The position numbers were made by a program, and so were the translations under genes. A stretch of 25,660 nucleotides of DNA from a virus. The notes below the pieces were generated by a model that worked only from the letters and a program-made list of their open reading frames with translations, had not been told where the DNA came from and did not search any database. Location of the stretch: positions 69,350 through 95,009 of IMG/VR virus record IMGVR_UViG_3300031965_000003; one strand, 5' to 3'. This document shows, in pieces, positions 3,757 through 25,660 of this stretch (its first letter is position 1; the number at the start of each line of letters is the position of its first letter).

Positions 3757-5883
3757 CTACCTGTCATCCCGCAGCTCCTGGATGTAAGCGATCAACTCAG
3801 CCTCGTTGTCCGAGCTAAACTGCTGCTCGCCATTTTCCTCCACGTTGTCGAGCGAGGGCGCTTCGAGCGGTGCTCCTTGTTGGCCAGGCTGTAGACCGCC
3901 ACCGCCAAGACCTTCAGGCTCAGGAACCTCTACCAAGGTCTCCTCAGGCAACGGTTCAAAGCCAATCAGGTCCCGCAGCCTGTTCTCGTCGTCCGGGCCG
4001 ACCCTCAGCGCCCCACCGCCAAGCCCCATCAAGAACAGCTCAAACTGCTTCTGCTTGATCTCTTCAGTGACCTCTTTGAACGCGAACCGCGGGTACTGGC
4101 CGTGCTCGATGGTGTAGTTGAGGTCAAGCAGTGGCTTGATGAGCTGCTCGTTGATGACCGTCTCTAGATCCTTGCGCAGCTGGCCCAAGATCCACATGAA
4201 CACGTCGAACTCTTTGACCGCCCTGGCAAAGCTCCCCGTCTGCTGCTCAGCGCTTAACCCCAACAGCCCAGGCATCAGCACCGCCACCCTTAGGTACTGG
4301 TCACACAGGTTAAGAGCAGGCATGAAGGCTTCACCGGTGCCCGTGGACGGGTCACGAAAATCGATCTTGATGTTGTCTGGGATAAGGATGCCTGAGCGGC
4401 TCTGCAGATTGCGGATAAAGGCATTGACGGCATCGCGCTGCTCCTGGGTGATGGTTCCTGTGTAAGACGCCACCGCGATAGGCTCGCCATAGCGCTCTAT
4501 GGCCACCGGCATCAACCGAAAGAGCACGTCCTTACACCACCAGCTCTTATAGGCGGCCCGCAGGTCGCTCCGTCCATAAGGATTGTCACACTCTTTGTGG
4601 TACGAGTAGATGACAAACTTCGCGGCGGGCAACGGCTTGCCAAGCTGCAGGACGCCCTGCTCTTGCAGGTCACCGTCAATGGTCATCGCGAAGTCGATAT
4701 CCTCCTGCGGACGGGTCTTGATGTCCTTCAGCCCCCACTTGCCATTAAACGGACCATAATCGATAGCCCAAAACAACGTTTCTGACACCGAATTATGAAC
4801 GAAGACATGATTAGCGGCAAAATTATGGGTGCCTGGCACTTCCATATCGTAAACATCGAAATTACCACAGACCTCAACGCTAACAACCTTATGATTTTGA
4901 ATCGACACAAACCTACCCGTCGATTCATCTTTGACAGTATTCTCATCTTTATGATGAACCTGGTCATTACCGCTAATTTGTGCATCACTAAACTGTGATA
5001 TTACCCACGGAGCCCGCTTGCTCCAAACCGTTTTCCCATAACCATAACGTGTTTGAATATAAGACCTGTTATTGGAAATTTTATCAGAATAAGGAGCCAA
5101 CCTATCCCCTGGTGTTAAAGACCCGGCTTGACGATAACTTCCGTCTAGGAGCATAAACGGGTGCTCAGCCGTGCAAGTAATAGAGCCTCGTCTACGCTTA
5201 CCACCATTAGTAAACCACTCATAGTTTACTCTTACACACGGTGCGTTTTGTTTGGTACGCCATACCTTACTTGCGCGTGCTAGTTTTAACTCATCACCAA
5301 CCTTAGAAAATACCCACGGCTGTTGACCGACGAGATTTTTAATTGGAACATCTCCACTCGGAGTATGAATAAGAGTATCGCCGTGCAAACAGAAACCAAA
5401 CTCAAGAGCAGTCATGATGCCAAGGATCTTGCTGTCAAACGCCCCCGTCATCTCTTGAAGGTTGAACTCTACAAACTCCTTGTGCTCCTCAGCAGCCTCT
5501 TGAGCAGCCTCAACGTCCTCCCCGCTCTCATCGTTCGCATCTTCCTTGGGCAAGGCTGGCATCATGATCTCATAACCGGTAGACAGGACGGCATATTTCT
5601 TTGCCAGCAGGGCTGCCTTTATCTGCTCATCGGTTAGCATGGTGCGGTACATCTTGATGCCCTTCTTCTGCACCATGTCATCAGGGTTGTAAGGCAAGAT
5701 GTTGAAAAACTTGCTCCCAGCGAAAGCCGCTCCCGTGAAACCGAACAAGCTTCCTGCCGTGCTGACCGTGTTACGCAGCTCTTGAGGCAACGCCTTGGCA
5801 TAGTCCTTGACCTCGTCAGCTTGCCTGCTTGGACGGGCCAAGGCTGGCAGGAACGCTAGCAGCGTCTCTAGGATGGATGCCAT
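3757..5883 (-). CDS. Portal protein, Mu gp29/DUF935 family, intein-containing (about 508 aa after splicing)
   Basis: D..IKAAL..KK.AV, ALEFGF|SVSE, KFVIY...DNPYGRSDLRAAY..WW.K, ERYGEP, GSFARA, INEQLIKPLLDLNY motifs; lies downstream of TerL. Confidence 0.9.
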   Translation of the reverse strand: MASILETLLAFLPALARPSRQADEVKDYAKALPQELRNTVSTAGSLFGFTGAAFAGSKFFNILPYNPDDMVQKKGIKMYRTMLTDEQIKAALLAKKYAVLSTGYEIMMPALPKEDANDESGEDVEAAQEAAEEHKEFVEFNLQEMTGAFDSKILGIMTALEFGFCLHGDTLIHTPSGDVPIKNLVGQQPWVFSKVGDELKLARASKVWRTKQNAPCVRVNYEWFTNGGKRRRGSITCTAEHPFMLLDGSYRQAGSLTPGDRLAPYSDKISNNRSYIQTRYGYGKTVWSKRAPWVISQFSDAQISGNDQVHHKDENTVKDESTGRFVSIQNHKVVSVEVCGNFDVYDMEVPGTHNFAANHVFVHNSVSETLFWAIDYGPFNGKWGLKDIKTRPQEDIDFAMTIDGDLQEQGVLQLGKPLPAAKFVIYSYHKECDNPYGRSDLRAAYKSWWCKDVLFRLMPVAIERYGEPIAVASYTGTITQEQRDAVNAFIRNLQSRSGILIPDNIKIDFRDPSTGTGEAFMPALNLCDQYLRVAVLMPGLLGLSAEQQTGSFARAVKEFDVFMWILGQLRKDLETVINEQLIKPLLDLNYTIEHGQYPRFAFKEVTEEIKQKQFELFLMGLGGGALRVGPDDENRLRDLIGFEPLPEETLVEVPEPEGLGGGGLQPGQQGAPLEAPSLDNVEENGEQQFSSDNEAELIAYIQELRDDR
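4792..5391 (-). mobile_element. Intein (200 aa) in the portal gene with a degenerate HNH homing-endonuclease remnant
   Basis: Block A CLHGDTLIHT, block B ITCTAEHPFM, block F VYDMEVPGTHNFAAN, block G VFVHN followed by Ser+1; internal VHHKDEN. Confidence 0.93.
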
Positions 5884-9836: not shown

Positions 9837-10769
9837 CTAAAATAAACCGCGCCGGGCCGCCCAATCAAGAAGATACCTGGTCGGGTCAGCAAAATAATGC
9901 ATGATGCAGTCCTCAAAATACCTGCGAACCTGCCTGTTAAACCGTTCCTGTTCGTAGGCTGGCGAGTAACGCTCAAAGCACAACCTAAGCCAGTCGGCCA
10001 ACTCATCCAGGCTCTTGGTGGGCGAGGCCCACTCCATCGGGACCGTCGCGTCCGTCGTGTCATCCATCCCACACCAGTCGTTGTATGAGATGGCAAACGG
10101 CATCCGCCCCAACCCACAGGCCTCGTAGAACCTGACCGTCATCATGTTAGCCGTCCCGCCAGGGCACAACGGCCAGGACCACTCCAACAGCCCAGCCTCA
10201 TAGCTCTGAACCACCGGCTGGTCAGCGCTGGTTTGAGCGTTCCAACCCTCGGTCCACTCCCACCGGTACGGCACGCCGGACACCTCTAGCGCCTCTTTCA
10301 CCTTTTCACGCAGACCGTGAGGATCGCGCTGCCCCTTGAAAAAATAGCCGGTCTTTTGCGGTGGCACGTAGGTGACACCCTTGCCGCGCCTGATCAGCGC
10401 CATCAAGAACCTCGAACAGGCCGGGCGCACCATGACGTTCCAGCCTGAACGGTGGGTGAGCAGGGCATTCATGGCCGACAAGATACACGGTTGCACCAAA
10501 TCGGGGATCTCAAATGAGTGGTCGCCCTCAAGATCAAACACGTGCCTGGCTTCATTGCCCTTGAAGAACTGAAACCGATTAGGGTGCAACAGCCAACGGG
10601 TTGCCTTGTTGTACTGGCCGCCGTAGAACAGCTCAGCGTCCTCTGGTCCAACCAACTCACACCATCGTTCGACCCCCGGCCTACAAAACGGGATGCAGTT
10701 CGGGTAGCCGTCACGGGTGTAGATCTCCTCAAGAGCGTGCTCGTAGATATAGATCTTTACCTTTCTCAT
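9837..10769 (-). CDS. Exostosin-like (GT47-like) glycosyltransferase
   Basis: N-terminal KIYIY...PEDAELF; C-terminal FFKGQ...LREKV...YEAGL...LCPGG...RFYEACGLGRMP pattern. Confidence 0.65.
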   Translation of the reverse strand: MRKVKIYIYEHALEEIYTRDGYPNCIPFCRPGVERWCELVGPEDAELFYGGQYNKATRWLLHPNRFQFFKGNEARHVFDLEGDHSFEIPDLVQPCILSAMNALLTHRSGWNVMVRPACSRFLMALIRRGKGVTYVPPQKTGYFFKGQRDPHGLREKVKEALEVSGVPYRWEWTEGWNAQTSADQPVVQSYEAGLLEWSWPLCPGGTANMMTVRFYEACGLGRMPFAISYNDWCGMDDTTDATVPMEWASPTKSLDELADWLRLCFERYSPAYEQERFNRQVRRYFEDCIMHYFADPTRYLLDWAARRGLF

Positions 10770-12848: not shown

Positions 12849-13709
12849 CTATGACCATGCTCCCCGTCCTATGGGCGTCACAATGCTCTCCAACCCTGCA
12901 TTGATTGCATTGATCCGTGCTAAGTACAGCTGATAATTCTCATCCGATGTTCGCGTGTATGGTTTGCCACGCTTCGGGATCGCCTTCAACGACTCTTGAG
13001 TGCCTAACTTATAAAGCAGGTACCTCACGTTCAACACCCAGCGCCACCCAAGAGCATTCGCCCGAACAGCTAAATCAATGTCGTTGATGCCCCTACCACC
13101 GTCATACTGCTGGTCCCAACCATTAAGGGTCTTTAACAACACCAGTGGGATAGAGTCACCAATAAAATAAATCACGTGCCCCGGTATTTCCCACAGCCCA
13201 AATTCTATCTCCTGCCCGAATAGCCGCCCTTTACGCTCCTGATACTCAGGCGTGTGCTTGTCAAAATACTCTTTGGCAAACACAGCGTTAAACTCCCGCT
13301 CAAAGACCGTCCAACGTTGATCGCTGTCAGTGTGAAGCGGAGGCGGCGCGTAACGGTCCAAATAATGTGTCATGCCGCAGCCCAACCGCTCGTACCAGCG
13401 CCAATGGGTGTCTAAATATTCTGGATACACCCAACAATAGTCCGTGAGATAAGTCACCAGCTCGCCAGCGCAGTATGTAGCCCCAACGTTCAACGCCCGC
13501 GTGTTATCGTAAAAATCATCTACCGAGGGAGCCGGGTAATGCCGTATCGGCAAGTCTACCTTAGCCAACAAGTCTTTTCGGTCAGCATAAAACTCGTCAA
13601 TGACGATCAACTCCCAATCGGTAACAGGCATGGTCTGCTGCAGAAACGCGTTCACCATCACGTCCAAACCACCAAGACGCGCTGTCACTATCACGTTAGA
13701 TATCTTCAC
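12849..13709 (-). CDS. GT2-like (GT-A fold) glycosyltransferase
   Basis: ISNVIVT...QQT.....WELIVIDE; RALNVG.....GELV.YLTD; NGWDQQYDGGRGINDIDLAVRA (GGFDE...ED.DL..R-type motif). Confidence 0.85.
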   Translation of the reverse strand: MKISNVIVTARLGGLDVMVNAFLQQTMPVTDWELIVIDEFYADRKDLLAKVDLPIRHYPAPSVDDFYDNTRALNVGATYCAGELVTYLTDYCWVYPEYLDTHWRWYERLGCGMTHYLDRYAPPPLHTDSDQRWTVFEREFNAVFAKEYFDKHTPEYQERKGRLFGQEIEFGLWEIPGHVIYFIGDSIPLVLLKTLNGWDQQYDGGRGINDIDLAVRANALGWRWVLNVRYLLYKLGTQESLKAIPKRGKPYTRTSDENYQLYLARINAINAGLESIVTPIGRGAWS

Positions 13710-14813: not shown

Positions 14814-16319
14814 CTAAAAATCAGATTTTGGATGGTTCATGACCGGACTTAATTTAATCCTGTGAATCCATTCCGCGTACACCAGCTTGATCAACCGAAA
14901 CAACTGTAAGATAAACCCAACAATACCATGCTTTTTCCACACCGGCCCCCAGCGCCACGGTTTGCCGTATATCTTTACAAAACCCCAATTCTGTAGCTCT
15001 ATTAGATCCTGCGCTTTAAGGTCGCCAACGTTGGTAACCGCATTGCCATAACGTAGGTATTCGCTGAAGTCCTCCGACAACAACTCTAAGCCGTGCTCGC
15101 CGCCAACTGCCATGCGATGAAACTCAGTGCCTGGATACGGCACGGCGATGGCCAGATTGGCCTGCTTGATATCACGCTGGTTAGATACCCACTGGATGGT
15201 GTTCCTGACTGTCTGTCGAGTCTCGCCCGGCAGCCCAATCATCAGGCTGTTCATAGCCTCTACTCCATGCTCAAAGCAAATCTTGTTGGCTCTAGGATAA
15301 TCGTCAATCGGAACCTTCTTCCCCATCGTGACACGCATCACCGGATCTATCGTCTCCAACCCAAAGCTCAGTCGTATCAATCCACTTTTGGCCAATCGCT
15401 TGACCAGCGGCTCGGTAACGGTGTTAGCTCTCGTGCTCGATTCAAACGTAAATCTCAACCCCTCGGCGTCCATGCGGTCAACGATCTCCAAGATGTGTTC
15501 GGGCCAAAACAGCAGCACGTCATCAACTATGTAAAGGTGAGTGATAAAAGGAAACCGTGTTGCAACGTCCTTCATCTCCTCAACCACCCGCTTAGGCGAC
15601 TTCATAATGACGCGCCGTGTCTGGATGGCGTCGCTGGCACAAAAAATACATGACCAATAGCAGCCACGCTGCGTGGCCAATGACGTAAAATTATTTCTTC
15701 CACGCGGCGTGCCAAGCCTATATTTCTCCATAGGCAATAGATGTCGTGCGGGTAACGGCAGCCTATCCAACGGATAGTTGTGCCCCAAGTCACTCTTCTT
15801 CATAGCGTCAAGCGTAATCCAGCGCGGCACAGCCTCTTTGATCTCGTTATTAACTCGCCGCATGACTCCCGATGGCTCATTGCCAGAAAATCCGCTACCA
15901 TACCACTGTAAAAAATCTTTTAAACTATCCTCCGCTTCACCTAAAAACCCATAATCAAATTGTGGCAAGAACGCTTTCTGTTTAACAATGGTTACATGCG
16001 GCCCGCCGACAATAATCGGTATATTTTTATTTTTTCTCTTGATTACGCTGGCAGCGTCGCACGACAAATGAAAAAACGGTGAGTAGGCAGAAAAACCAAC
16101 CACGTCAGGTTTCTGTTCTAAAATCTTATCTGCCAACTGCTCGTTGTCCCATCCGTTGGCCTCTGCATCGATGATTACAGCCTCATGCCCGGCTTCTTCT
16201 ACGACTGCTCCAAGCTGCGCCAGGTTTAATGGCGGCCAGGTAGAATTTCGCTTGGCAAAGTGGCCAAAGAGACCATACTCTCCAGTCCACCGAGGATAGG
16301 CAAACAACACCTTTATCAT
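14814..16319 (-). CDS. Cobalamin-binding radical SAM enzyme (class B methyltransferase-like)
   Basis: PPLNLAQL, KPDVVGFS, IIVGGPH, GEAE (B12 domain); RGCYWSCIFC (CxxxCxxC); FGLET, MIGLPGET, PYPGTEF. Confidence 0.93.
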   Translation of the reverse strand: MIKVLFAYPRWTGEYGLFGHFAKRNSTWPPLNLAQLGAVVEEAGHEAVIIDAEANGWDNEQLADKILEQKPDVVGFSAYSPFFHLSCDAASVIKRKNKNIPIIVGGPHVTIVKQKAFLPQFDYGFLGEAEDSLKDFLQWYGSGFSGNEPSGVMRRVNNEIKEAVPRWITLDAMKKSDLGHNYPLDRLPLPARHLLPMEKYRLGTPRGRNNFTSLATQRGCYWSCIFCASDAIQTRRVIMKSPKRVVEEMKDVATRFPFITHLYIVDDVLLFWPEHILEIVDRMDAEGLRFTFESSTRANTVTEPLVKRLAKSGLIRLSFGLETIDPVMRVTMGKKVPIDDYPRANKICFEHGVEAMNSLMIGLPGETRQTVRNTIQWVSNQRDIKQANLAIAVPYPGTEFHRMAVGGEHGLELLSEDFSEYLRYGNAVTNVGDLKAQDLIELQNWGFVKIYGKPWRWGPVWKKHGIVGFILQLFRLIKLVYAEWIHRIKLSPVMNHPKSDF

Positions 16320-17770
16320 GTGTACAGCCTCCGTTTGATCTTGACCTCAATCATACGCTTGACAGCCTCAACAGCTTCTGAGCCAAACTTATAAGCAATC
16401 AAGGTTTGATACGTGTCAGAGCTATAGTAACGCCGAAACGCCTCGTCTCTGAACCTCAACACGTCTGCAGAGGTCAAAGTTTCAGTAGGTAATGGACAGC
16501 TGTCATAGCTGTGGTGCGAGTAAGCGGCCCAACCGCCTTCTGGCTTCCAACTGTCCTTCACTTGCTCATACAACGCGCTGCCTGGGTATGGCATGCAGCC
16601 GTAAATGTTAAACCACTCTGGCAAGATGGTCTGCGCCATCTGAAATGTGTGCTCTATGCTCTCATAGGTATCACCAGGTAAGCCCACGATGAAGTTAGCC
16701 GCTATGTTGATATCGTGCTGCTTGATACGCGCGCAGGTCTGATAAATGTCCTGCTCTCCGTATTGTCCCTTGTCTATGCCATCACGCACCTGATCAGAGG
16801 CCGACTCGATGCCTAGACCCAACCACCTGACCCCAGCCCGTCGCAGCGCAGCCAAAAACCTGTCCTTGGTGCAATCAACTCGCCCGTAGCACCAGATGTT
16901 CAAGTGATCGCTCCAGCCCCTCTCAATGATGCCTTCACAGATGCCCATGACATGCCTATAATTGAGCACAAACATCTCGTCGCAAATCTTTATGTGCTGA
17001 ACGTTATAGCCCTCGATCAAAATTTCCAACTCCCGCAGCACCATTTCAACCGGCCACATGCGATAAGAATTTACCGACCCGCCCAACGCCAATTGGTCAC
17101 CTCTACGGAATGGAGCTTGGATACAACAGAAGAGGCAGCTAAATGAGCAGCCTAACGACGTGTAAATGCTCGCGTAAGGCATGCGGTCGGCGTGACCGAA
17201 ACAATGCCAGTTATGCGCCCGATAATTCTTAGGATGCACCCTAGCCCATTGCCCGCCAGGCATCTCACGCACGTTGATGTTAACCACCGTCTCCGTAAAC
17301 ACCGGCACCCCATGCTCCAACCGGCACACCCCACGAGGTGGCTCTACGCCTTGAAGTACGTCCAGAATAGACACCGGTCCCTCGCCAGTACAAACGTAAT
17401 CGGCACCAGTTTCCAGCAAAGCTTGCCTCGGCAACGCCGCCGGATGAGTACCCACCAGCATGAGACGCGTTGACGGACTCACCTGCTTAACAAGTCTACA
17501 TAGGTCAATGACCGCTGGCATGACTTGAGTAGACGCGCTGGGCTGATGACCTTGACAAACAATGACAACGAACTTGGTATCAAGATATTCCAAGATGTTA
17601 ACCCGTGAGTTGGCATTTAAATCCACTATCTCAGCCGAGTAACCTTGGCCTTCAACGTAAGAGGCTAGCAATCGACACCACACCGGAGGTTCTATGGCAG
17701 TCAACTCCACTGCCAGCTCCTGATAAACCAACTCGCGACCAAAAGGGTTGATAAAGATAACGTCGCTCAT
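16316..17770 (-). CDS. Cobalamin-binding radical SAM enzyme (start revised to ATG at 17770)
   Basis: IEPPVW, VGTHPAALP, GEGP; SLGCSFSCLFC; LGIESA, FIVGLPGDT, PYPGSALY; ATGA overlaps at both ends. Confidence 0.93.
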   Translation of the reverse strand: MSDVIFINPFGRELVYQELAVELTAIEPPVWCRLLASYVEGQGYSAEIVDLNANSRVNILEYLDTKFVVIVCQGHQPSASTQVMPAVIDLCRLVKQVSPSTRLMLVGTHPAALPRQALLETGADYVCTGEGPVSILDVLQGVEPPRGVCRLEHGVPVFTETVVNINVREMPGGQWARVHPKNYRAHNWHCFGHADRMPYASIYTSLGCSFSCLFCCIQAPFRRGDQLALGGSVNSYRMWPVEMVLRELEILIEGYNVQHIKICDEMFVLNYRHVMGICEGIIERGWSDHLNIWCYGRVDCTKDRFLAALRRAGVRWLGLGIESASDQVRDGIDKGQYGEQDIYQTCARIKQHDINIAANFIVGLPGDTYESIEHTFQMAQTILPEWFNIYGCMPYPGSALYEQVKDSWKPEGGWAAYSHHSYDSCPLPTETLTSADVLRFRDEAFRRYYSSDTYQTLIAYKFGSEAVEAVKRMIEVKIKRRLYT

Positions 17771-18531
17771 TCGACCACCTTCGCCCAAATCTGACCAAAC
17801 CGAGTGTAACCCGGTAACATCTCCTTGACCGCCCTGACTACGCCAAAGTGCATTTTACCGTCGATGTAATAATCCAACTCTGGCTCTCCACATAGCCGCT
17901 CCCACTCCTTTGACCCCATCTCCACGTCACCCGTGAAAGCATGACCGCATATCACACCACCAGACCGAACCTTTGGCAGCCACGCCAGAATGTCTCTCTT
18001 GATCCCCGAATACCTGTGGTCGCCGCCTATATAAACGTAATCAATCGACCGATCTGGCAACAGCGCTGCTGGCTCCCATGATGTACCTATGACCACTGAC
18101 ACATAATTCAATGCATCCGCAATCTCTATATTCTTCAACAGCTGCAGCAACACTGTGCCAGCTGGAAACTGCCCCCACTGATAGTCAGCTATCTGACTGT
18201 TGACTCCACCTTTAAACCAATCAACACAATAAAAATGACCGCCATTAGCAGCAAAGACTGACCACACGCACGATGCAGTCCATCCCGTGTAGCATCCCGT
18301 ATCGAACCCAATCATACCAGGGCGTGCTACATTTTCCGCCAAGCTATGAAGGAAGTAGGCAACTGACACCTCAAGCCCACCGCCCAAAGAATCCCACTCA
18401 TTGCCCTCCTCCAACCATTGATGCTTCGCCATCTGCTCACAACGATGGTCGCTATTGTCATAAATATTCTGATCACACAAGGAACACTTAACATACGTGA
18501 CCCCGTTATCATCTTTACACTGAATAAACAC
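17767..18531 (-). CDS. Class I SAM-dependent methyltransferase-like protein (Methyltransf_24 type) with N-terminal Cys cluster
   Basis: DTGCYTGWTA, YCVDWFKG, IDYVYIGGDHRY..IKRDI.AWLPKVRSGGVICGH, GVVRAVKE. Confidence 0.8.
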   Translation of the reverse strand: MFIQCKDDNGVTYVKCSLCDQNIYDNSDHRCEQMAKHQWLEEGNEWDSLGGGLEVSVAYFLHSLAENVARPGMIGFDTGCYTGWTASCVWSVFAANGGHFYCVDWFKGGVNSQIADYQWGQFPAGTVLLQLLKNIEIADALNYVSVVIGTSWEPAALLPDRSIDYVYIGGDHRYSGIKRDILAWLPKVRSGGVICGHAFTGDVEMGSKEWERLCGEPELDYYIDGKMHFGVVRAVKEMLPGYTRFGQIWAKVVE

Positions 18532-18534
18532 CGC

Positions 18535-20337
18535 CTACTCGCTCCTTCTGTCTTGCCAACCGGGTACAGGATCAATGATCATGTTTCCGAGAAATTCATT
18601 TTCCGGCAGCGATGGCCACTGCTCCTCTATACCAGCATCCCAACGCATCATGCGCGGCTCGTACTGATGAAAGTCACCGCAGTCAACATCACACACAACC
18701 GCCTCTCGACTATTCAGCACCTCCGAAATAACTCGATCAGCGTCCCTTGTCTTGCTCACTGTTCTGGTTGATAACCCATATGCCCGTGCGATCTCAAGAA
18801 AGTTGGGCACGCTGTAACCCTTGGGGCCGCAAGCCTCGCGCTTGCCGCCAAAGTTCGTCTCTTGATACGCAACCGTGATCCCATAGGTATGGTTGTTAAG
18901 AACAAAAATCTTAAGCGGCACGTTGTAGTGCTTAATCGTCTGAAGCTCTTGGATGTTCATCTGAAAACCGCCGTCACCTATCACACACACGACACGCCTA
19001 GCAGGATCGGCGAACCACGCGCCCATCGCTCCGCACATCGAGAAGCCCATCGGAGAGTTGCCGTTGTTGGTCAAGTACCGCTGGCCAAACTTAGTCTTGA
19101 AGGCATGATTGCACACCACGATGTTACCGCCGCAATCAGCCACGAGCACGTCGCTAGATGCCATTAACTCAGACAGTTGGCGCACGAAAGCGTATGGATG
19201 AATGCTTGATTGTAAGAACTGCTGAGCCTGCACCGGATCGTAACGATCACGCCACTCAACAACTTGCCGCCGCCACGGGTCAATATCTAACCGCGGGTCT
19301 TGACCACCAACAACTATATCAAGCAGGCACTTTAAGAATATATAAGCGTCACACCGCGCACAGACATCAAACGGCAACTGTTGCAGGTAGCGCTGAAGCA
19401 ACGCAGGGTCAACGTCAATAACGTACTTTTTTGCCCCACGAGCAAATGATTGAATGTTGCCTCCAGTGATCCTGCCAGACAACCGGCACCCGATGGCAAC
19501 TAATAGATCGCTGTTCTGCACAGCAAAGTTACGCCCCGCTCCACCATATGTACCTATCCTACCGCCATAAAAATCAAGATCACTCGTGATAACGTCTAGC
19601 GCGTTCCATGTCGGGAAGCATGGCACGCCCAGCCGCTGGCTCAACTCATTAATAACCGATACCGCACCAGCTATACGCACTCCTCCCCCAACCAAGATCA
19701 CTGGGCGCGAAGCCCGCTGTAAATCGTCTAGCAGTCTAAACGCAACTCGCCGCACTTCAAGCATGTCATAAAAAGCAGCCTCAACACTTGCATCAAACCC
19801 GTGTAACTTACCAGGGTCAATCTCAGCTTTTTGAACGTCCATCGGCAGATCAATCAGCACCGGCCCAGGCCTCTCATTACGACACAGCCAATACGCTTTT
19901 TCCATCTCATAGCGAATAGCCCTTGGGTCGGTCACCATAACCGCGTACTTAGTTATGGGCTTGACGATAGAGACAATATCAGTTTCTTGAAAACCAACTT
20001 GACGCACCGAAGGATCTGGCCGTAAGAATCGGGAATTGATTTGCCCCGTGATAAAGATGCAAGGCACCGAATCGTAAAAACAATTGCCTATCGGCGTCAC
20101 GAGATTCATGCCACCTGGCCCACTGGTAACTATCACTGCACCTGGCTTGCCACTGATCTTGGCGTAACACTCCGCAGCAAATCCGCCGCCTTGCTCGTGG
20201 ATGACTGAAATGTATTCCGTCTGTTTAGTACGGGTAAATGCATCGCATAAATCTCCCATCGCCGACCCATACACCATGCACACCTTATCGATGCCATTCC
20301 GCCCCAAAAAATCAACAGCGTAATCAGCCAGCTTCAT
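18535..20337 (-). CDS. ThDP-dependent acetolactate-synthase-fold enzyme, probably a YerE-like sugar-branching carboligase (start revised to ATG at 20337)
   Basis: HEQGGGFAAE, VTSGPGGMN, GFQETDIV, RPGPVLIDLPMDVQ, GDGGFQMNIQEL...LNNHTYG (GDG-x-NN). Sugar-pathway context and no ilvN/ilvC. Confidence 0.88.
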   Translation of the reverse strand: MKLADYAVDFLGRNGIDKVCMVYGSAMGDLCDAFTRTKQTEYISVIHEQGGGFAAECYAKISGKPGAVIVTSGPGGMNLVTPIGNCFYDSVPCIFITGQINSRFLRPDPSVRQVGFQETDIVSIVKPITKYAVMVTDPRAIRYEMEKAYWLCRNERPGPVLIDLPMDVQKAEIDPGKLHGFDASVEAAFYDMLEVRRVAFRLLDDLQRASRPVILVGGGVRIAGAVSVINELSQRLGVPCFPTWNALDVITSDLDFYGGRIGTYGGAGRNFAVQNSDLLVAIGCRLSGRITGGNIQSFARGAKKYVIDVDPALLQRYLQQLPFDVCARCDAYIFLKCLLDIVVGGQDPRLDIDPWRRQVVEWRDRYDPVQAQQFLQSSIHPYAFVRQLSELMASSDVLVADCGGNIVVCNHAFKTKFGQRYLTNNGNSPMGFSMCGAMGAWFADPARRVVCVIGDGGFQMNIQELQTIKHYNVPLKIFVLNNHTYGITVAYQETNFGGKREACGPKGYSVPNFLEIARAYGLSTRTVSKTRDADRVISEVLNSREAVVCDVDCGDFHQYEPRMMRWDAGIEEQWPSLPENEFLGNMIIDPVPGWQDRRSE

Positions 20338-21545
20338 AGTATGGCCCCGTCCCTCCTGTGGTCGCGCACGAAGCAAATCAATCGCTTGATACCTTCTGTG
20401 ACCTCATCAACGCTGCCTCCACAAGCTAGCCTAACATACTGATCCCAACGCACCCCGCCAAAAGCCTTGCCAGGAGTCACAGCCACGTAGGCATCCTCAA
20501 GCGCAAGCTTAGCGAACTCCACGCTGTTTAACCCGGTAGACCCGATATTCAAGAACAGATAATAAGCCGCCATCGGCATATCGCACCTCAAGACACGGCT
20601 ATCGTTAACCAAGGCCGCATATTGACGCATGAGGGGCGCATACCGCACACGCAATGACATGCAATGGTTATCAATCTCATCAAGCGCAGCCAGAACGCCT
20701 GCCTGAGTAAATGAGGACAGACAACTTATTGAAGTCGATATCGACAACACGACTTTTTCGATGAACTGCGAATCAGCTATCACGTACCCGACGCGATAAC
20801 CCGGCACCCCAAAGAGCTTTGACAAGCTGCCTATACGCACCACTTTCTCCTGGAGCCTAGGGATAAAATAACATTCAGGGAGCTCCATAACGTATCTCAA
20901 TCTTTCATAAGTCTCGTCAATAAGCAGCCAGATATCATGCTCCTCACACTTGTCGATCAAATACGACATCACCGCCAGCGGGTAAACCGCTCCGGTAGGG
21001 TTGTTCGCGCTATTGACGATGATGGCCCCGCGGCATCCACGCAATCGCGTAGGAGATTTGCTGTTTATGCAATATACCGCATGGTCAACGTCTTCTCTCG
21101 TCAGCTCCCAATTAATTTTTTCGTTGAGCGGCAATACATAAACATTAGAGCAAAGATGGGCAGACGCAGCCATGTACGTTGGAAACGCTGGCGAGAACAA
21201 TACAACCGGCGTGGTCTGGTCACTGGCTATGGTTAAAAACTGACTGATGGCGAAATTTGCCGGAGTGATCGCTACATTAGCCGCTGTCAACTCTCCGCAC
21301 CCAAACTTCTCTGCAATCTTCTGCCTCAATGCAGTGAGCCCACCTGCCAGCGTGTAACCGTGATAACCACTCTTAAGCATCCTTAAGCTGCTCTCTATAA
21401 GCCGCAAGGGCGGTGGTACACAAACGGCTCCAAGCTCCAAGTGACAAATCCTATGGCCTCTGCTCTCAAGCTCAGTTGCCTGATCAGCTATCTTAAACAT
21501 CTCCTGGCCAATCAAGGTGTTAGCACGATTAGAGAATTGAACCAT
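20334..21545 (-). CDS. PLP-dependent aminotransferase, class I/II
   Basis: NSANNPTG, IDETY, SLSKLFGVPGYRVGY (catalytic Lys), VTPGKAFG, YVRL. Confidence 0.92.
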   Translation of the reverse strand: MVQFSNRANTLIGQEMFKIADQATELESRGHRICHLELGAVCVPPPLRLIESSLRMLKSGYHGYTLAGGLTALRQKIAEKFGCGELTAANVAITPANFAISQFLTIASDQTTPVVLFSPAFPTYMAASAHLCSNVYVLPLNEKINWELTREDVDHAVYCINSKSPTRLRGCRGAIIVNSANNPTGAVYPLAVMSYLIDKCEEHDIWLLIDETYERLRYVMELPECYFIPRLQEKVVRIGSLSKLFGVPGYRVGYVIADSQFIEKVVLSISTSISCLSSFTQAGVLAALDEIDNHCMSLRVRYAPLMRQYAALVNDSRVLRCDMPMAAYYLFLNIGSTGLNSVEFAKLALEDAYVAVTPGKAFGGVRWDQYVRLACGGSVDEVTEGIKRLICFVRDHRRDGAIL

Positions 21546-21551
21546 ACTACG

Positions 21552-22544
21552 TTACCTCGACACCCCAACTATCTTAGCAATACCATCCCAAAACACCCTA
21601 CCGTCAAACGTCTCAACCGCCTTCCGATGACCAGCCCTCGCAATATCTTCAGCCTCTTTAGCACCAACCCCCATGTAGTATCTCAACCGTTCTATCAAGT
21701 TAGTGTCCTGAAATTCTAGCTGCCCGTTGTTGTAATGAAATGGCTCAGTAAATGGCACGTACTCCGCCATGGTACTAAATAATCGGCTGGTCTCGATGCT
21801 CTCAGACTCAAGCAACATGGCTCCGCACATCGTAGCTTCTGCTGTCCTACCCGTAAGATGCTCAAACGTACACGCAGAGGTGAAGTTCAGCGTGATCTTA
21901 GACCGTCTGAGCCAACCCACATAATCATAGATAGACCCACGACTGCTAGGATGCGCCCCACCTAACACCTTAACCTCTATACCGCTGCCTGTCACCCATG
22001 CCAGATTTAATGCGCGATCAATCCTCCCCAGAACAGACCCGACAAACGTTAACGGCAGATCACGCTCAATCTTTTCGTCACAATTAAAAAGCGTCGGATC
22101 TCTAGGCTCCGGCAGCCAATAAGTCTTGTCAGGGTGCTTAGTAAACTTTTTCCAATGCTCGTAGGTATCAAAAAACACGTTGGCCGTAGTACCAGCTGCA
22201 TACATATCAGCCCAAGTTACCACGTTGGGAGCAGACTCCAACCACAACGAGACTACTGGTATACCCATACGGTCTCTGATAACTTGATAGCACTCAGGGG
22301 GAATATTATTTTTTTCCAGCGCCAACACTGGCGTGGTCAATACGATATCAGGACCAAACGTATGACACGCCGTCAATAAGGCTTTAGAACTCTCTTGTAC
22401 ACTAGTGAATTGGTTGTAAAAAAACAGAAACTCTCTGTGTCCTAGAGCGCGCAATGACCCTATCAAAGAATAAAGTGCAAGTGTTGGCTCATGATCGCCA
22501 GGGAACCGGCACATCGTGCTTTCTAAAGATAATAACACCCTCAT
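21552..22544 (-). CDS. CgeB-like (GT-B fold) glycosyltransferase
   Basis: DPTLF, LTFVGS...R, SKITLNF, GRTAEATMCGAMLLE, EDIARAGHRK. Confidence 0.78.
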   Translation of the reverse strand: MRVLLSLESTMCRFPGDHEPTLALYSLIGSLRALGHREFLFFYNQFTSVQESSKALLTACHTFGPDIVLTTPVLALEKNNIPPECYQVIRDRMGIPVVSLWLESAPNVVTWADMYAAGTTANVFFDTYEHWKKFTKHPDKTYWLPEPRDPTLFNCDEKIERDLPLTFVGSVLGRIDRALNLAWVTGSGIEVKVLGGAHPSSRGSIYDYVGWLRRSKITLNFTSACTFEHLTGRTAEATMCGAMLLESESIETSRLFSTMAEYVPFTEPFHYNNGQLEFQDTNLIERLRYYMGVGAKEAEDIARAGHRKAVETFDGRVFWDGIAKIVGVSR

Positions 22545-22810
22545 GCGTCATGCTCGCTCACTATTGGTTTTTCGATCAAGCCCCAATCGATACCTAATCG
22601 CGAGTCGTCCCACTTCACATAAACCCGCTGCTTAGTATAATAACCGCTCCATCTGTACCAAAACACCGCAACATCGGACCGTACTGAATGCCCGTTCACT
22701 ACGTACCAACCAACTACATAATAATAATAATTTTCATTAAATGGACTTAGTGGATCCATAAGGTTCATAAACCCATTTGGATCAGCAATTGACATATCGT
22801 TCTTTCCCAT
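22541..22810 (-). pseudogene. Truncated or chimeric RmlC-like (NDP-4-keto-6-deoxyhexose 3,5-epimerase) C-terminal fragment
   Basis: NGHSVRSDVAVFWYRWSGYY...KWDDSRLGIDWG...PIVSEHD resembles the RmlC C-terminus; the N-terminal half with the RGLH motif is absent. Confidence 0.65.
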
Positions 22811-22811
22811 T

Positions 22812-24098
22812 TTATCGTACCGCCTTTCGCAAAACTCCCGCTATGTATTCCATACACTCACGGTTGAGCAAAGGATGCACCCCAACAAAAAATCCGTCTT
22901 TCATGATCTTATCGGTGTTCTTTAAATCGCCGTGAACACGATGAGAAATATTCCTAAAGGCAGGCTGGCGAAGTAGGTTACCACCAAAGATTGGCCTAGT
23001 CTCGATCTTTGCAGCCTCCAACTCAGCAATCACCCTTGCGCGGTCAACCCCATCGCGACAGATCAACGGATACGCATACGGCGACGGAACCGCTGTTTTT
23101 AAAATACGCGGCAAGATAAAATAATCTTCAAGATCGCCATGACACAGCCGGTCAAGCAGATAAAAATTTTCACGCCGCCTACTAATGATAAAATCTAGCT
23201 TATCAAACTGAGCACACAGCACGGCAGCTTGCATGTCAGTAGCTTTCAGGTTGTAGCCGATATAAGTATAGATGTATTTGTGGTCTGTCCCAAGCGGCAA
23301 ACTGGGACGAAAATCCCAATCAAACCTCATACCGCAAGTATTCGACAGACCGGGCTTACAGTAACAGGCCCGTCCCCACTCGCTCAGTGACCGCGCCGCC
23401 ACAGTCAACTTCGAAGAATTGATGATACAAGTCCCACCTTCGCCTGCTGTCGTGTGATGCGCTGGAAAGTGAGACAAGCTAGAAGCATGACCAAACGTAC
23501 CAACCAACTTACCTTTGATGGTGGCCGCTAAAGCATCGCAACCGTCTTCAAAAAACCACAGGTTGTTCTCATCCGCTATGTTGCGCACCCACCATGCGTC
23601 AAAAGGTAAACCTAACGGGTGCGGCAACATGATTGCCTGCACGTCATCATCACAATCAGCCACGTCATCTATCGTCTCAAGACTAGGATTGTAAGTGTCC
23701 AGCTCAACATCAACAAACACCGGGCGCAAACCCAATTGAATGATCGGAGCTAATGTCGTCGGGAAACCCAAGGCTGGTACTACAACCTCAAAGCCAGCCT
23801 TCAACTGTTGATCCTCAGAAGCGCACGCCGCCGCCAGCATCAACAGGTTAGCTGATGACCCCGAATTGACAAGCACCGCAGACCTGCACCCAAATAATTT
23901 GATGATCTTGCTCTCAAACTCCTCTGTCCAACGCCCAGCCGTTAAGTGTCCCGACAACGCACAATCGACCAAGTTGACCATCTCATGATAATCGAACACC
24001 TCCGTGCTGTACGTGATCCTATCCGCGCCAGGCCGAGGAGAACACTTGGATTGCACGTACTTCTGCACGCTTTCTAGAATGCTCTCACGGGTGATCAT
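22812..24098 (-). CDS. rfbH: CDP-4-keto-6-deoxyglucose 3-dehydrase-like (E1, DdhC/RfbH), PMP and [2Fe-2S] dependent
   Basis: VNSGSSANLL, FPTTLAPIIQ, EDGCDAL, SHFPAHHTTAGEGG (His at the usual Lys position), WGRACYCKPGLSNTC (CxCx7C), DHKY, GYNLKATDMQAA, ETRPIFGGNLLRQP. Confidence 0.9.
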   Translation of the reverse strand: MITRESILESVQKYVQSKCSPRPGADRITYSTEVFDYHEMVNLVDCALSGHLTAGRWTEEFESKIIKLFGCRSAVLVNSGSSANLLMLAAACASEDQQLKAGFEVVVPALGFPTTLAPIIQLGLRPVFVDVELDTYNPSLETIDDVADCDDDVQAIMLPHPLGLPFDAWWVRNIADENNLWFFEDGCDALAATIKGKLVGTFGHASSLSHFPAHHTTAGEGGTCIINSSKLTVAARSLSEWGRACYCKPGLSNTCGMRFDWDFRPSLPLGTDHKYIYTYIGYNLKATDMQAAVLCAQFDKLDFIISRRRENFYLLDRLCHGDLEDYFILPRILKTAVPSPYAYPLICRDGVDRARVIAELEAAKIETRPIFGGNLLRQPAFRNISHRVHGDLKNTDKIMKDGFFVGVHPLLNRECMEYIAGVLRKAVR

Positions 24099-24475: not shown

Positions 24476-25660
24476 TTAACTTTCTGCCACAATATTAACA
24501 GCGCCTGGTTTCCAACCAAATGTCCACAATCTGACCTGCTCAAAATCGTCGATATTATCGGGACCATCAACACCAAATTGCTCACGAGTAGCCGGTACTG
24601 GCAAAACAGTCTGGTGCTCACCATCGTTCTCACTCCAATGCAGGTGTAACGCTCTAATCATTTGTCCGTCGCCTAAATCAATTGATAGTAGGCGATCATC
24701 GCCAACTCTAGATATGCATCGTGTTTTTAAATGTTTTAATATCGTCTGTAACCCTATCTTACCGATAACCGCCATTCTAACCTGAGCATTAGATTCTTTT
24801 AGCAGATCTCGTGGATCAAGATTTTTAACCTTGATATATTTTTCCGGTACAGTTACACCGTGCAAGCTATACAATCCCCAGCCGTCGCGATACTTGATAG
24901 CCATGTCATTTTCGTCGTGCAATCTACCGCGAACGTCACGATGGATATATTCGGGACGATTACTTACCATGACAAAATGTTTATTAGGCCACCAGTAACC
25001 AGCAGCCATTTGTGTCTTACGATAAACATCCGCACGTGCATTCAAATCACCAGGCAATTCCAATCCACAATACTGAGTAAAAAACGACTCAAAGGACAGC
25101 CATGCTGGCCACAGTGAACCACCAAACCAATAGTGCCAAAATAAATCATTCTTTTTCTCCAATTTGACCGCCGAGTGAACCGCCGAGTGAACCGCCGAGT
25201 AAACCGTCGAGTCAACCGCCGACTCAACCGTCGAGCGAACCGCCGAGCCAACCGCCGAGTCAACCGCCGAGTAAACCGTCGAGTCAACCGTCGAGTAAAC
25301 CGTCGAGTAAACCGTCGAGCCAACCGCCGACTCAACCGCCGAGCGAACCGCCGAGTCAACCGCCGAGTAAACCGTCGAGCGAACCACCGAGTCAACCGCC
25401 GAGTAAACCGCCGACTCAACCGCCGAGCGAACCGCCGAGTAAACCGCCGAGCCAACCGCCGAGCCAACCGCCGAGTGAACCGCCGAGTGAACCGCCGAGT
25501 AAACCGCCGGGTAAACCGCCGAGTAAACCGCCGAGTGAACCGTCGAGTCAACCGCCGAGTAAACCGCCGAGTCAACCGCCGAGCCAACCGCCGAGTGAAC
25601 CGCCGAGTGAACCGCCGAGTCAACCGCCGAGTAAACCGCCGAGTCAACCGCCGAGTGAAC
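24476..25660 (-). CDS. DUF6745-like protein with N-terminal (V-x-S-A/T)n repeat; 5' end beyond the window
   Basis: Frame is open to base 25660; GYWWP....VMVSNRP..IHRD..GRLH.....AI.YRDGWGLYSLHGVTVP, E.NAQVR. Confidence 0.82.
   Translation of the reverse strand, partial: VHSAVDSAVYSAVDSAVHSAVHSAVGSAVDSAVYSAVDSTVHSAVYSAVYPAVYSAVHSAVHSAVGSAVGSAVYSAVRSAVESAVYSAVDSVVRSTVYSAVDSAVRSAVESAVGSTVYSTVYSTVDSTVYSAVDSAVGSAVRSTVESAVDSTVYSAVHSAVHSAVKLEKKNDLFWHYWFGGSLWPAWLSFESFFTQYCGLELPGDLNARADVYRKTQMAAGYWWPNKHFVMVSNRPEYIHRDVRGRLHDENDMAIKYRDGWGLYSLHGVTVPEKYIKVKNLDPRDLLKESNAQVRMAVIGKIGLQTILKHLKTRCISRVGDDRLLSIDLGDGQMIRALHLHWSENDGEHQTVLPVPATREQFGVDGPDNIDDFEQVRLWTFGWKPGAVNIVAES
25169..25660 (-). repeat. Coding tandem repeat, at least 41 copies of a 12-nt unit (GTT NRS TCG RCG on the minus strand)
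   Basis: Directly visible; 492 nt in perfect 12-nt register up to the window edge. Confidence 0.97.

Follow-up and report, generated by a model that had tools for sequence, protein, structure and literature searches.

The stretch of DNA analysed here (the window) is 25,660 nt long and forms the final 25.7 kb of a 95,009-bp virus record from soil metagenomes (IMG/VR record IMGVR_UViG_3300031965_000003, positions 69,350 to 95,009). The record is that of a phage, with terminase, portal and major head genes, and its completeness by CheckV is 80%. The genes of interest run from an E1-type sugar dehydrase gene through two B12-dependent radical S-adenosylmethionine (SAM) genes, all on the minus strand. 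The genes for E1, a YerE-like thiamine diphosphate (ThDP) enzyme and an aminotransferase (AT) are real and intact. The AT quite probably supplies a 2-oxo acid to the ThDP enzyme, which is predicted to add a branch to a nucleoside diphosphate (NDP) sugar. These three genes, and a short-chain dehydrogenase/reductase (SDR) gene beyond the window, are as follows.

22812-24098, minus strand: E1/DdhC/RfbH-type pyridoxamine phosphate/[2Fe-2S] NDP-4-keto-sugar 3-dehydrase, 428 amino acids (NF011936, PDB 3bcx)
20334-21545, minus strand: class I aminotransferase (aspartate aminotransferase subgroup Ib fold) of the glycan-cluster "GQEMF" subfamily (PF00155)
18535-20337, minus strand: YerE-like ThDP/FAD carboligase, 600 amino acids, with TPP N, M and C domains; its start overlaps the AT stop (ATGA)
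C1:430-1509, outside the window, across the inferred join of the contig ends: UXS-like SDR (UXS motifs, tree, context)

A first-pass annotation of the window had named E1, a YerE-like enzyme and a class I/II AT coupled to it through ATGA, and these identifications stand. E1 scores 471 bits on NCBIfam NF011936 (cutoff 423) and has Yersinia E1 as its best PDB match (3bcx, E = 7.5e-103); in alignment with 3bcx, His214 replaces the lysine that binds pyridoxal phosphate (PLP), and Cys245, Cys247, Cys255 and His273 align with the Fe-S ligands. The ATGA at 20337-20334 holds both the AT stop and the ThDP start, and the ThDP protein is therefore 600 amino acids long (18535-20337). Its leading PDB matches are JanthE (8rph, 4.5e-86) and the YerE homologue PpYerE (5ahk, 3.1e-78), followed by plant acetohydroxyacid synthase (AHAS; 3.4e-72), and it falls under every AHAS cutoff (380 vs 538 bits). 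In the phylogeny (all trees here are quick SH-aLRT or FastTree trees) it does not cluster with true IlvB; it nests with enzymes of sugar clusters, and a split with a support of 100 separates it from IlvB, IlvG and IlvI. The characterised YerE and ErwE are not in this tree, so likeness to them is seen via the PDB matches, and no YerF, ErwF, YerE or ErwE record was among the best matches listed from plasmid and phage collections (best 30-33% identity). Glu48 is invariant, GDGG lies at 454-457 and N481/N482 complete the GDG...NN motif of a three-domain decarboxylase-family fold. By these sequence criteria it is a YerE-like carboligase outside the AHAS clade, with an NDP-4-keto sugar as its predicted acceptor. 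It belongs to a large uncharacterised subfamily (58-68% identity), and relatives of 55-68% identity adjoin sugar genes wherever the flank is long enough.

The AT is a class I/II enzyme (PF00155 at 3.5e-35) and lies outside the DegT sugar aminotransferases: PF00155 is its sole Pfam match, with none to PF01041. Its subfamily is set off at ~40% identity (E<=1e-67), with the next drop to 1e-46. Residues K243, D210, N182, Y213, R251 and R372 are invariant in 54 sequences; we take K243, D210 and R372 to be the PLP lysine, the pyridine Asp and the alpha-carboxylate Arg. A structural model (pLDDT 90; TM 0.83-0.87 to aspartate and prephenate aminotransferases) shows the fold and gives no indication of the substrate.

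Probable donor supply by the aminotransferase

What does an amino-acid transaminase do beside a YerE-like enzyme? About 190 loci were fetched with the AT or the ThDP enzyme and their genes mapped, with 84 AT loci and 125 ThDP-selected loci among them; Nitrospira and marine viruses are strongly represented in this sample. Across the ThDP-selected loci the AT alternates with a PanB-like hydroxymethyltransferase, for example that at L167:7710-8648: 42 carry the AT, 41 carry PanB and none carries both (Fisher 6e-10 raw, 1e-4 dereplicated). The AT is likewise found in 0 of 79 PanB-selected viral loci, an overlapping set in which 72 carry a ThDP gene, and the AT/PanB state changes at least seven times on the ThDP tree. 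In those 72 of 79 viral loci (L356-L434), more distant ThDP clades included, the PanB near the YerE-like gene is a specialised paralogue.

The active-site columns of the ThDP enzymes are nearly identical beside the AT and beside PanB, and hence a single donor is likely. PanB chemistry yields 4-hydroxy-2-oxo acids. The cluster PanBs keep every catalytic residue and have L179/Y200/L212/I214 in 40 of 40 aligned sequences, where E. coli PanB and five housekeeping copies have V/I/(I,V)/V. In PanB the pocket for the nucleophile takes its shape from I212 and V214 (PMC7610986); the bulkier L179, L212 and I214 would suit a substrate of smaller size, for instance pyruvate, from which 4-hydroxy-2-oxobutanoate (HOB) would form. 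Transamination between homoserine and HOB is known (PMC8879981), and HOB is accepted in vitro by ErwE, MyGE and MMAR_2332 (PMC9306805). In one genome (L435:10001-20397; GCA_030648895.1), a cluster ordered ThDP enzyme, GHMP kinase, nucleotidyltransferase, AT, SDR, ColD runs into genes for bifunctional ThrA (aspartokinase/homoserine dehydrogenase) and Asd; L101, with the same AT lineage, likewise runs into thrA/asd.

The wider distribution of the AT tells the same story. Three separate AT lineages have been recruited beside the same ThDP subfamily on the tree, and the phage-type AT is also found with other YerE-like clades. Without a YerE-type gene, the same AT can adjoin ThDP pairs of the pyruvate dehydrogenase (PDH) E1 alpha/beta type and LeuA-like genes, as in alphaproteobacterial and Nitrospiraceae glycan loci (L022, L047, L060) that hold both. 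These settings point to 2-oxo-acid supply. From such context we consider it quite probable that the AT is the 2-oxo-acid donor supplier. Supply of a non-pyruvate donor was one of two roles proposed in the first-pass annotation, and it is the best-supported reading, resting on the AT/PanB alternation, the thrA/asd neighbours and the shared ThDP active site. That the donor is HOB, made specifically from L-homoserine, is a tentative proposal, slightly more apt to be wrong than right.

The cassette around these genes recurs, and the cultured Nitrospira defluvii is one bearer of the AT type. Its commonest layout, in Nitrospira, comprises a ColD-like enzyme, an SDR, a GHMP kinase, a nucleotidyltransferase, the AT, a radical SAM enzyme and the ThDP enzyme. 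There (L005-L060) the cluster adjoins PilZ-, HD-GYP- and FliW-like genes, recognised by eye, and a very large glycosyltransferase (GT) gene; flagellar glycosylation would be a guess at its role. Radical SAM enzyme A is the usual third member beside the AT or PanB and the ThDP enzyme (76 of 84 AT loci, 28 of 41 PanB loci). It and one of two SDR families of these clusters, SDR16, are mutually exclusive (79 and 20 of the 125 loci, both in 0; L068-L195), which suggests two product subtypes. Viral contigs that look T4-like (L135, L150-L152, L156-L158, L148) have a compact cassette of radical SAM, ThDP, in some cases AT, GHMP, ColD and SDR genes; L148 has the AT and its close relatives lack it.

The acceptor sugar and the branch reductase

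The other features of the window are as follows.

24476-25660, minus strand: DUF6745 gene, 3' part, with a 12-bp (SAVx) repeat; the 5' part is at the other contig end
22541-22810, minus strand: RmlC-like cupin fragment, 89 amino acids, probably a remnant (PF00908 positions 108-161 of 168 only; TIGR01221 33 bits, cutoff 156)
21552-22544, minus strand: GT (Glyco_trans_1_2; PF13524, 1.6e-11), likely to transfer the product sugar
17767-18531, minus strand: SAM-dependent methyltransferase (Methyltransf_24; PF13578, 1.5e-14)
16316-17770, minus strand: B12-dependent radical SAM enzyme A (PF02310 and PF04055; CxxxCxxC intact)
14814-16319, minus strand: B12-dependent radical SAM enzyme B, 66% identical to the copy in the SDR-E1 locus of another phage (L267)
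8756-9763, minus strand: GHMP sugar kinase, HddA-like (100 bits, below the HddA cutoff of 600)

The GT and the RmlC fragment sit between E1 and the AT. The GHMP kinase is of the same family as those of Nitrospira-type ThDP clusters and falls in one sequence cluster with kinases of 94 related loci.

The record begins and ends in one and the same 12-bp repeat of a DUF6745 gene. Of a single full-length homologue, the two gene parts cover residues 5-154 and 63-348, in order; they have an exact overlap of 39 nt and give an open joined frame of 481 amino acids. This order and the in-frame join argue that the phage genome is probably circular, the contig ends meeting in the repeat, which would be why the assembly broke there. 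One 7.3-kb Logan contig ends in the repeat and goes on into C1:185 onward, which fits the join and is not proof of it. Long open frames rich in Arg on both strands are artefacts of the SAVx repeat.

No SDR lies within the window, as the first-pass annotation had stated. The record's only extended SDR lies across the inferred join, upstream of E1, with 1,826 bp between the SDR stop and the E1 start. It keeps the UXS motifs (S/T-S-E, YxxxK and a C-terminal Arg), has UXS and other decarboxylases, EvdS6 included, as its best sequence and fold matches, and reaches 27 bits on TIGR02622 (cutoff 278). Its cellular relatives adjoin UDP-glucose dehydrogenase (UGDH) genes (4/4), and its phage relatives directly precede a gene of E1 size (4/4). 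The window E1 forms a clade (support 99) with three phage E1s that follow a UXS-like SDR, apart from classical RfbG-linked E1s; a viral scan with E1 alone gave no matches. On motifs, tree and context, the SDR thus resembles a UDP-glucuronate decarboxylase tied to E1 and is probably not YerF. An SDR does therefore exist elsewhere on the contig, where a YerF-like reductase would have told against the first-pass reading, and its probable identity leaves that reading not clearly refuted. A recurrent cellular cassette combines a nucleotidyltransferase, an SDR, a UXS-like SDR, UGDH and an RfbH/DegT enzyme (L268:6260-11856 and similar loci; in L268 the order is rfbF-SDR-UXS-like-UGDH-rfbH). This arrangement suggests a route to 3-deoxy-pentoses, for which no description was found.

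The SDR most likely supplies the 4-keto substrate of E1, which would explain the lack of RfbF and RfbG in the phage. Because it is decarboxylase-like, the acceptor may be a 3-deoxy-4-keto-pentose; a pentose acceptor is possible rather than probable. UGDH is absent from the phage record. Neither DdhA (cytidylyltransferase), DdhB (CDP-glucose 4,6-dehydratase) nor DdhD (E3) was found: the whole, 80% complete record has no PF00483 or PF00175 match, and its only SDR scores far below the TIGR02622 cutoff, as given above. The host could supply these functions. Yersiniose itself is an unlikely product because the phage lacks these three. The earlier label "yersiniose-like" is thus a loose one: besides the lack of these three, the partners of the ThDP relatives are ColD-type enzymes and never RfbH, and E1 falls in the phage clade linked to UXS-like SDRs.

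Two units, an SDR-E1-GT module and an AT-ThDP-radical SAM cassette, are combined in this chimeric locus. This raises the possibility that the two halves work separately: the first would make and transfer an unbranched 3-deoxy sugar, and the second would act on a host GDP-4-keto-3,6-dideoxy sugar, as the ColD-linked relatives would. Indeed, E1, the SDR, the GT and radical SAM enzyme B track with the phages of L267, L269 and L274 (the window GT is 49% identical to that of the L267 module), and the ThDP relatives adjoin ColD-type His enzymes in 121/167 loci. However, the genes are packed tightly in one run, and the phage has neither ColD nor a separate 4-ketoreductase, so that the 4-keto group would most obviously be branched. 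Otherwise conserved residues are also altered in the ThDP enzyme of the phage (N27M, K489V and the C-terminal 563-573), changes that are consistent with a new acceptor without being proof of one. We regard two separate modules as unlikely; this arrangement would be compatible with the donor role of the AT. In L267 (8690-10008) and L269 (19989-21026), phages with the same SDR-E1-GT module have short E1-alpha and transketolase-pyrimidine-domain genes (199 and 174 amino acids in L267) in place of the YerE-like gene.

The donor role would also be compatible with the SDR acting as the YerF equivalent, on a yersiniose-type hexose with a reduced C3 branch made from host-supplied CDP-4-keto-6-deoxyglucose. 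Classical rfbF-rfbG-rfbH clusters have, next to their YerE-like genes, SDRs that are distantly related to UXS, and the phage SDR joins UXS on a branch supported at 86 only. Yet the phage enzyme retains every motif of the UXS set, with counterparts of the Glu and Arg lost in most ThDP-adjacent SDRs, lies outside the clades of those SDRs and has the UGDH-linked cellular relatives described above. This assignment of the SDR is quite unlikely.

Which enzyme, then, would reduce the branch ketone? Two SDR families of the related loci, SDR4 and SDR16, are likely candidates by position: one or the other lies beside the AT in 75/84 AT loci, most of the other nine being short, the two occur together in only 2/125 loci, and both are without the dehydratase acid or the UXS Arg. 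The phage record has no SDR4- or SDR16-type gene, no aldo-keto reductase and no clear branch reductase. With this slot empty, the branch ketone would stay, be reduced by the host or, less likely, be aminated. Amination by the AT, in place of reduction by YerF, was the other role that the first-pass annotation had proposed, taking the AT to stand where a reductase is expected. Transaminases are listed among branch-modifying enzymes (PMC9306805), and two other phages (L183, L188) carry radical SAM, AT and ThDP genes with no SDR in the sequenced stretch. Nevertheless, the AT generally has its reductase candidate as a neighbor and alternates with PanB, not with the SDRs. Its fold is that of amino-acid transaminases, with the invariant R372 and N182 typical of alpha-carboxylate-binding enzymes, and the sugar transaminases known to us are of the DegT family. 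Branch amination is accordingly improbable. An ordinary AHAS with a housekeeping transaminase, as auxiliary metabolic genes, could appeal to TIGR00118 as the best NCBIfam match and to 30-31% identity to IlvB/IlvG, but is extremely improbable for an enzyme under every AHAS cutoff, with the IlvB/G/I split and the sugar-gene relatives noted above.

Proposed pathway and its implications

Donor supply by the AT, taken together with C4 branching of a 3-deoxy-4-keto sugar, is favored by a small measure, and it is reasonably probable that the E1 product is the acceptor of the ThDP enzyme. First, the UXS-like SDR would make an NDP-4-keto sugar, most likely a 4-keto-pentose from host NDP-glucuronate. 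Second, E1 would strip off the hydroxyl at C3, a host reductase providing the electrons; this is the known function of the family, applied to a presumed substrate. Third, the AT would deaminate an amino acid, with L-homoserine the likeliest, to HOB; the interchangeable PanB-like enzyme would reach the same compound from pyruvate and a one-carbon unit. Fourth, the ThDP enzyme, by chemistry known for its family, would decarboxylate this donor and add a 3-hydroxypropanoyl unit at C4, leaving a tertiary alcohol. Fifth, and least securely, the radical SAM enzymes and the methyltransferase may tailor the sugar, the branch ketone may be kept or reduced by a host enzyme, and the GT may attach the sugar to its target, probably virion proteins. 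The most likely product would be a 3-deoxy sugar with a C4 branch derived from 3-hydroxypropanoyl and tailored by radical SAM enzymes.

Virion proteins are suggested as the target by soluble GTs, including one near the head gene: directly downstream of the major head gene lies a 1331-aa GT4-methyltransferase-GT2 protein with an intein and an HNH domain (L004:3849-7844; C1:58849-62844). Two weak GT-like genes lie at 9837-10769 and 12849-13709 of the window (RXYLT1_C and GT2 matches below cutoff). Other inserted elements are an intein in the portal gene (window 3757-5883) and a LAGLIDADG-like insert in an RlaP-like nucleotidyltransferase (L001:4706-6763).

Several points weigh against this pathway. 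The chemistry is drawn throughout from sequence and gene context. A phylogenetically independent-pairs test of AT against PanB is not significant (7 pairs, median p 0.5), and a third of the ThDP loci have neither gene. The thrA/asd link comes from a single lineage, whose AT is only 27% identical to that of the phage; the phage AT is itself long-branched, with Ala-Val at 40-41 where the family has Asn-Pro. RfbH pairs with the ThDP subfamily in 0/167 loci, so that the coupling of E1 to the ThDP enzyme is drawn from this phage alone. No contig from four soil runs (Logan contigs, compared with the window end) bridges the DUF6745 repeat. No E1 is known to us that acts on a pentose. The whole chain is unlikely to be correct in every detail: a UXS-like decarboxylase and E1 giving an NDP-3-deoxy-4-keto-pentose (a new E1 substrate class), fused with a homoserine transaminase and a YerE-like enzyme adding a C3 branch, with B12-radical-SAM tailoring, to give a branched sugar for which no description was found, placed on the virion by phage GTs.

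What would such a module mean? First, the published scheme draws the long donors of acyl-branched sugars from aldolases, and the loci described here would add two further, interchangeable routes, through a transaminase or a PanB paralogue. Both would feed one widespread, uncharacterised ThDP subfamily of Nitrospira, other uncultured bacteria and many viruses, and homoserine and HOB are the predicted substrates. Second, E1-type deoxygenases may act on pentoses, and phages may build exotic sugars themselves. Third, since YerE-like enzymes are prized for making tertiary alcohols, a clade adapted to another donor could be of practical use. In the literature searched, of which coverage is incomplete, neither donor route is described, and nothing was found on the Nitrospira cluster, on a YerE-like gene accompanied by PanB or AT, or on an E1 acting on a pentose.

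Comparison with known systems

The phage module shares with the yersiniose A pathway of Yersinia pseudotuberculosis O:6 and O:12 (DdhA-D, YerE, YerF; PMC5399914, PMC9306805) an E1-type 3-dehydrase and a single-chain, AHAS-fold ThDP/FAD carboligase, with predicted C4 branching of an NDP-4-keto-3-deoxy sugar. Unlike that pathway, it has no DdhA, DdhB, DdhD or clear YerF, and it has a probable dedicated donor-supply gene and two B12 radical SAM enzymes. Its ThDP enzyme and E1 belong to different clades, its setting is viral and its gene context argues for a non-pyruvate donor. JanthE (8rph) and PpYerE (5ahk), the closest solved structures, have in common with the phage enzyme an extended C-terminal region beyond the reach of AHAS alignments. 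They are only distant relatives, however; JanthE has a CDG motif where the phage enzyme has GDG, and their natural substrates differ where known.

The eurekanate route of everninomicin (EvdS6; PMC10338323), like UXS, uses an NDP-glucuronate decarboxylase to give a 4-keto-pentose, the proposed acceptor for ThDP-dependent acyl transfer. Its carboligase is a PDH-like heterodimer and its proposed route has no E1-type 3-deoxygenation, whereas in the phage E1 is tied to a decarboxylase-like SDR. As for the target, glycosylated mycobacteriophage virions such as Che8 (cited in PMC11256854) offer a plausible class through their phage-encoded soluble GTs; that source names only GTs, while the window phage is predicted also to encode biosynthesis of an unusual sugar. 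A link to bradyrhizose was looked for, and only rfaL and a 4,6-dehydratase were found named.

The closest parallel is with erwiniose, caryophyllose and gastriose (ErwI/J-ErwE-ErwF, MMAR_2331/2332 and MygI/E/F; PMC9306805), where a neighboring gene makes a hydroxylated 2-oxo acid for a YerE-like enzyme. The donor there comes from a pyruvate aldolase, and transamination appears in that work only as a laboratory route to donors; here it is proposed to come from the AT and, in relatives, from a PanB paralogue. The phage module is not a member of the yersiniose A pathway and would work like the erwiniose/caryophyllose scheme, in which a dedicated donor gene serves a YerE-like enzyme.

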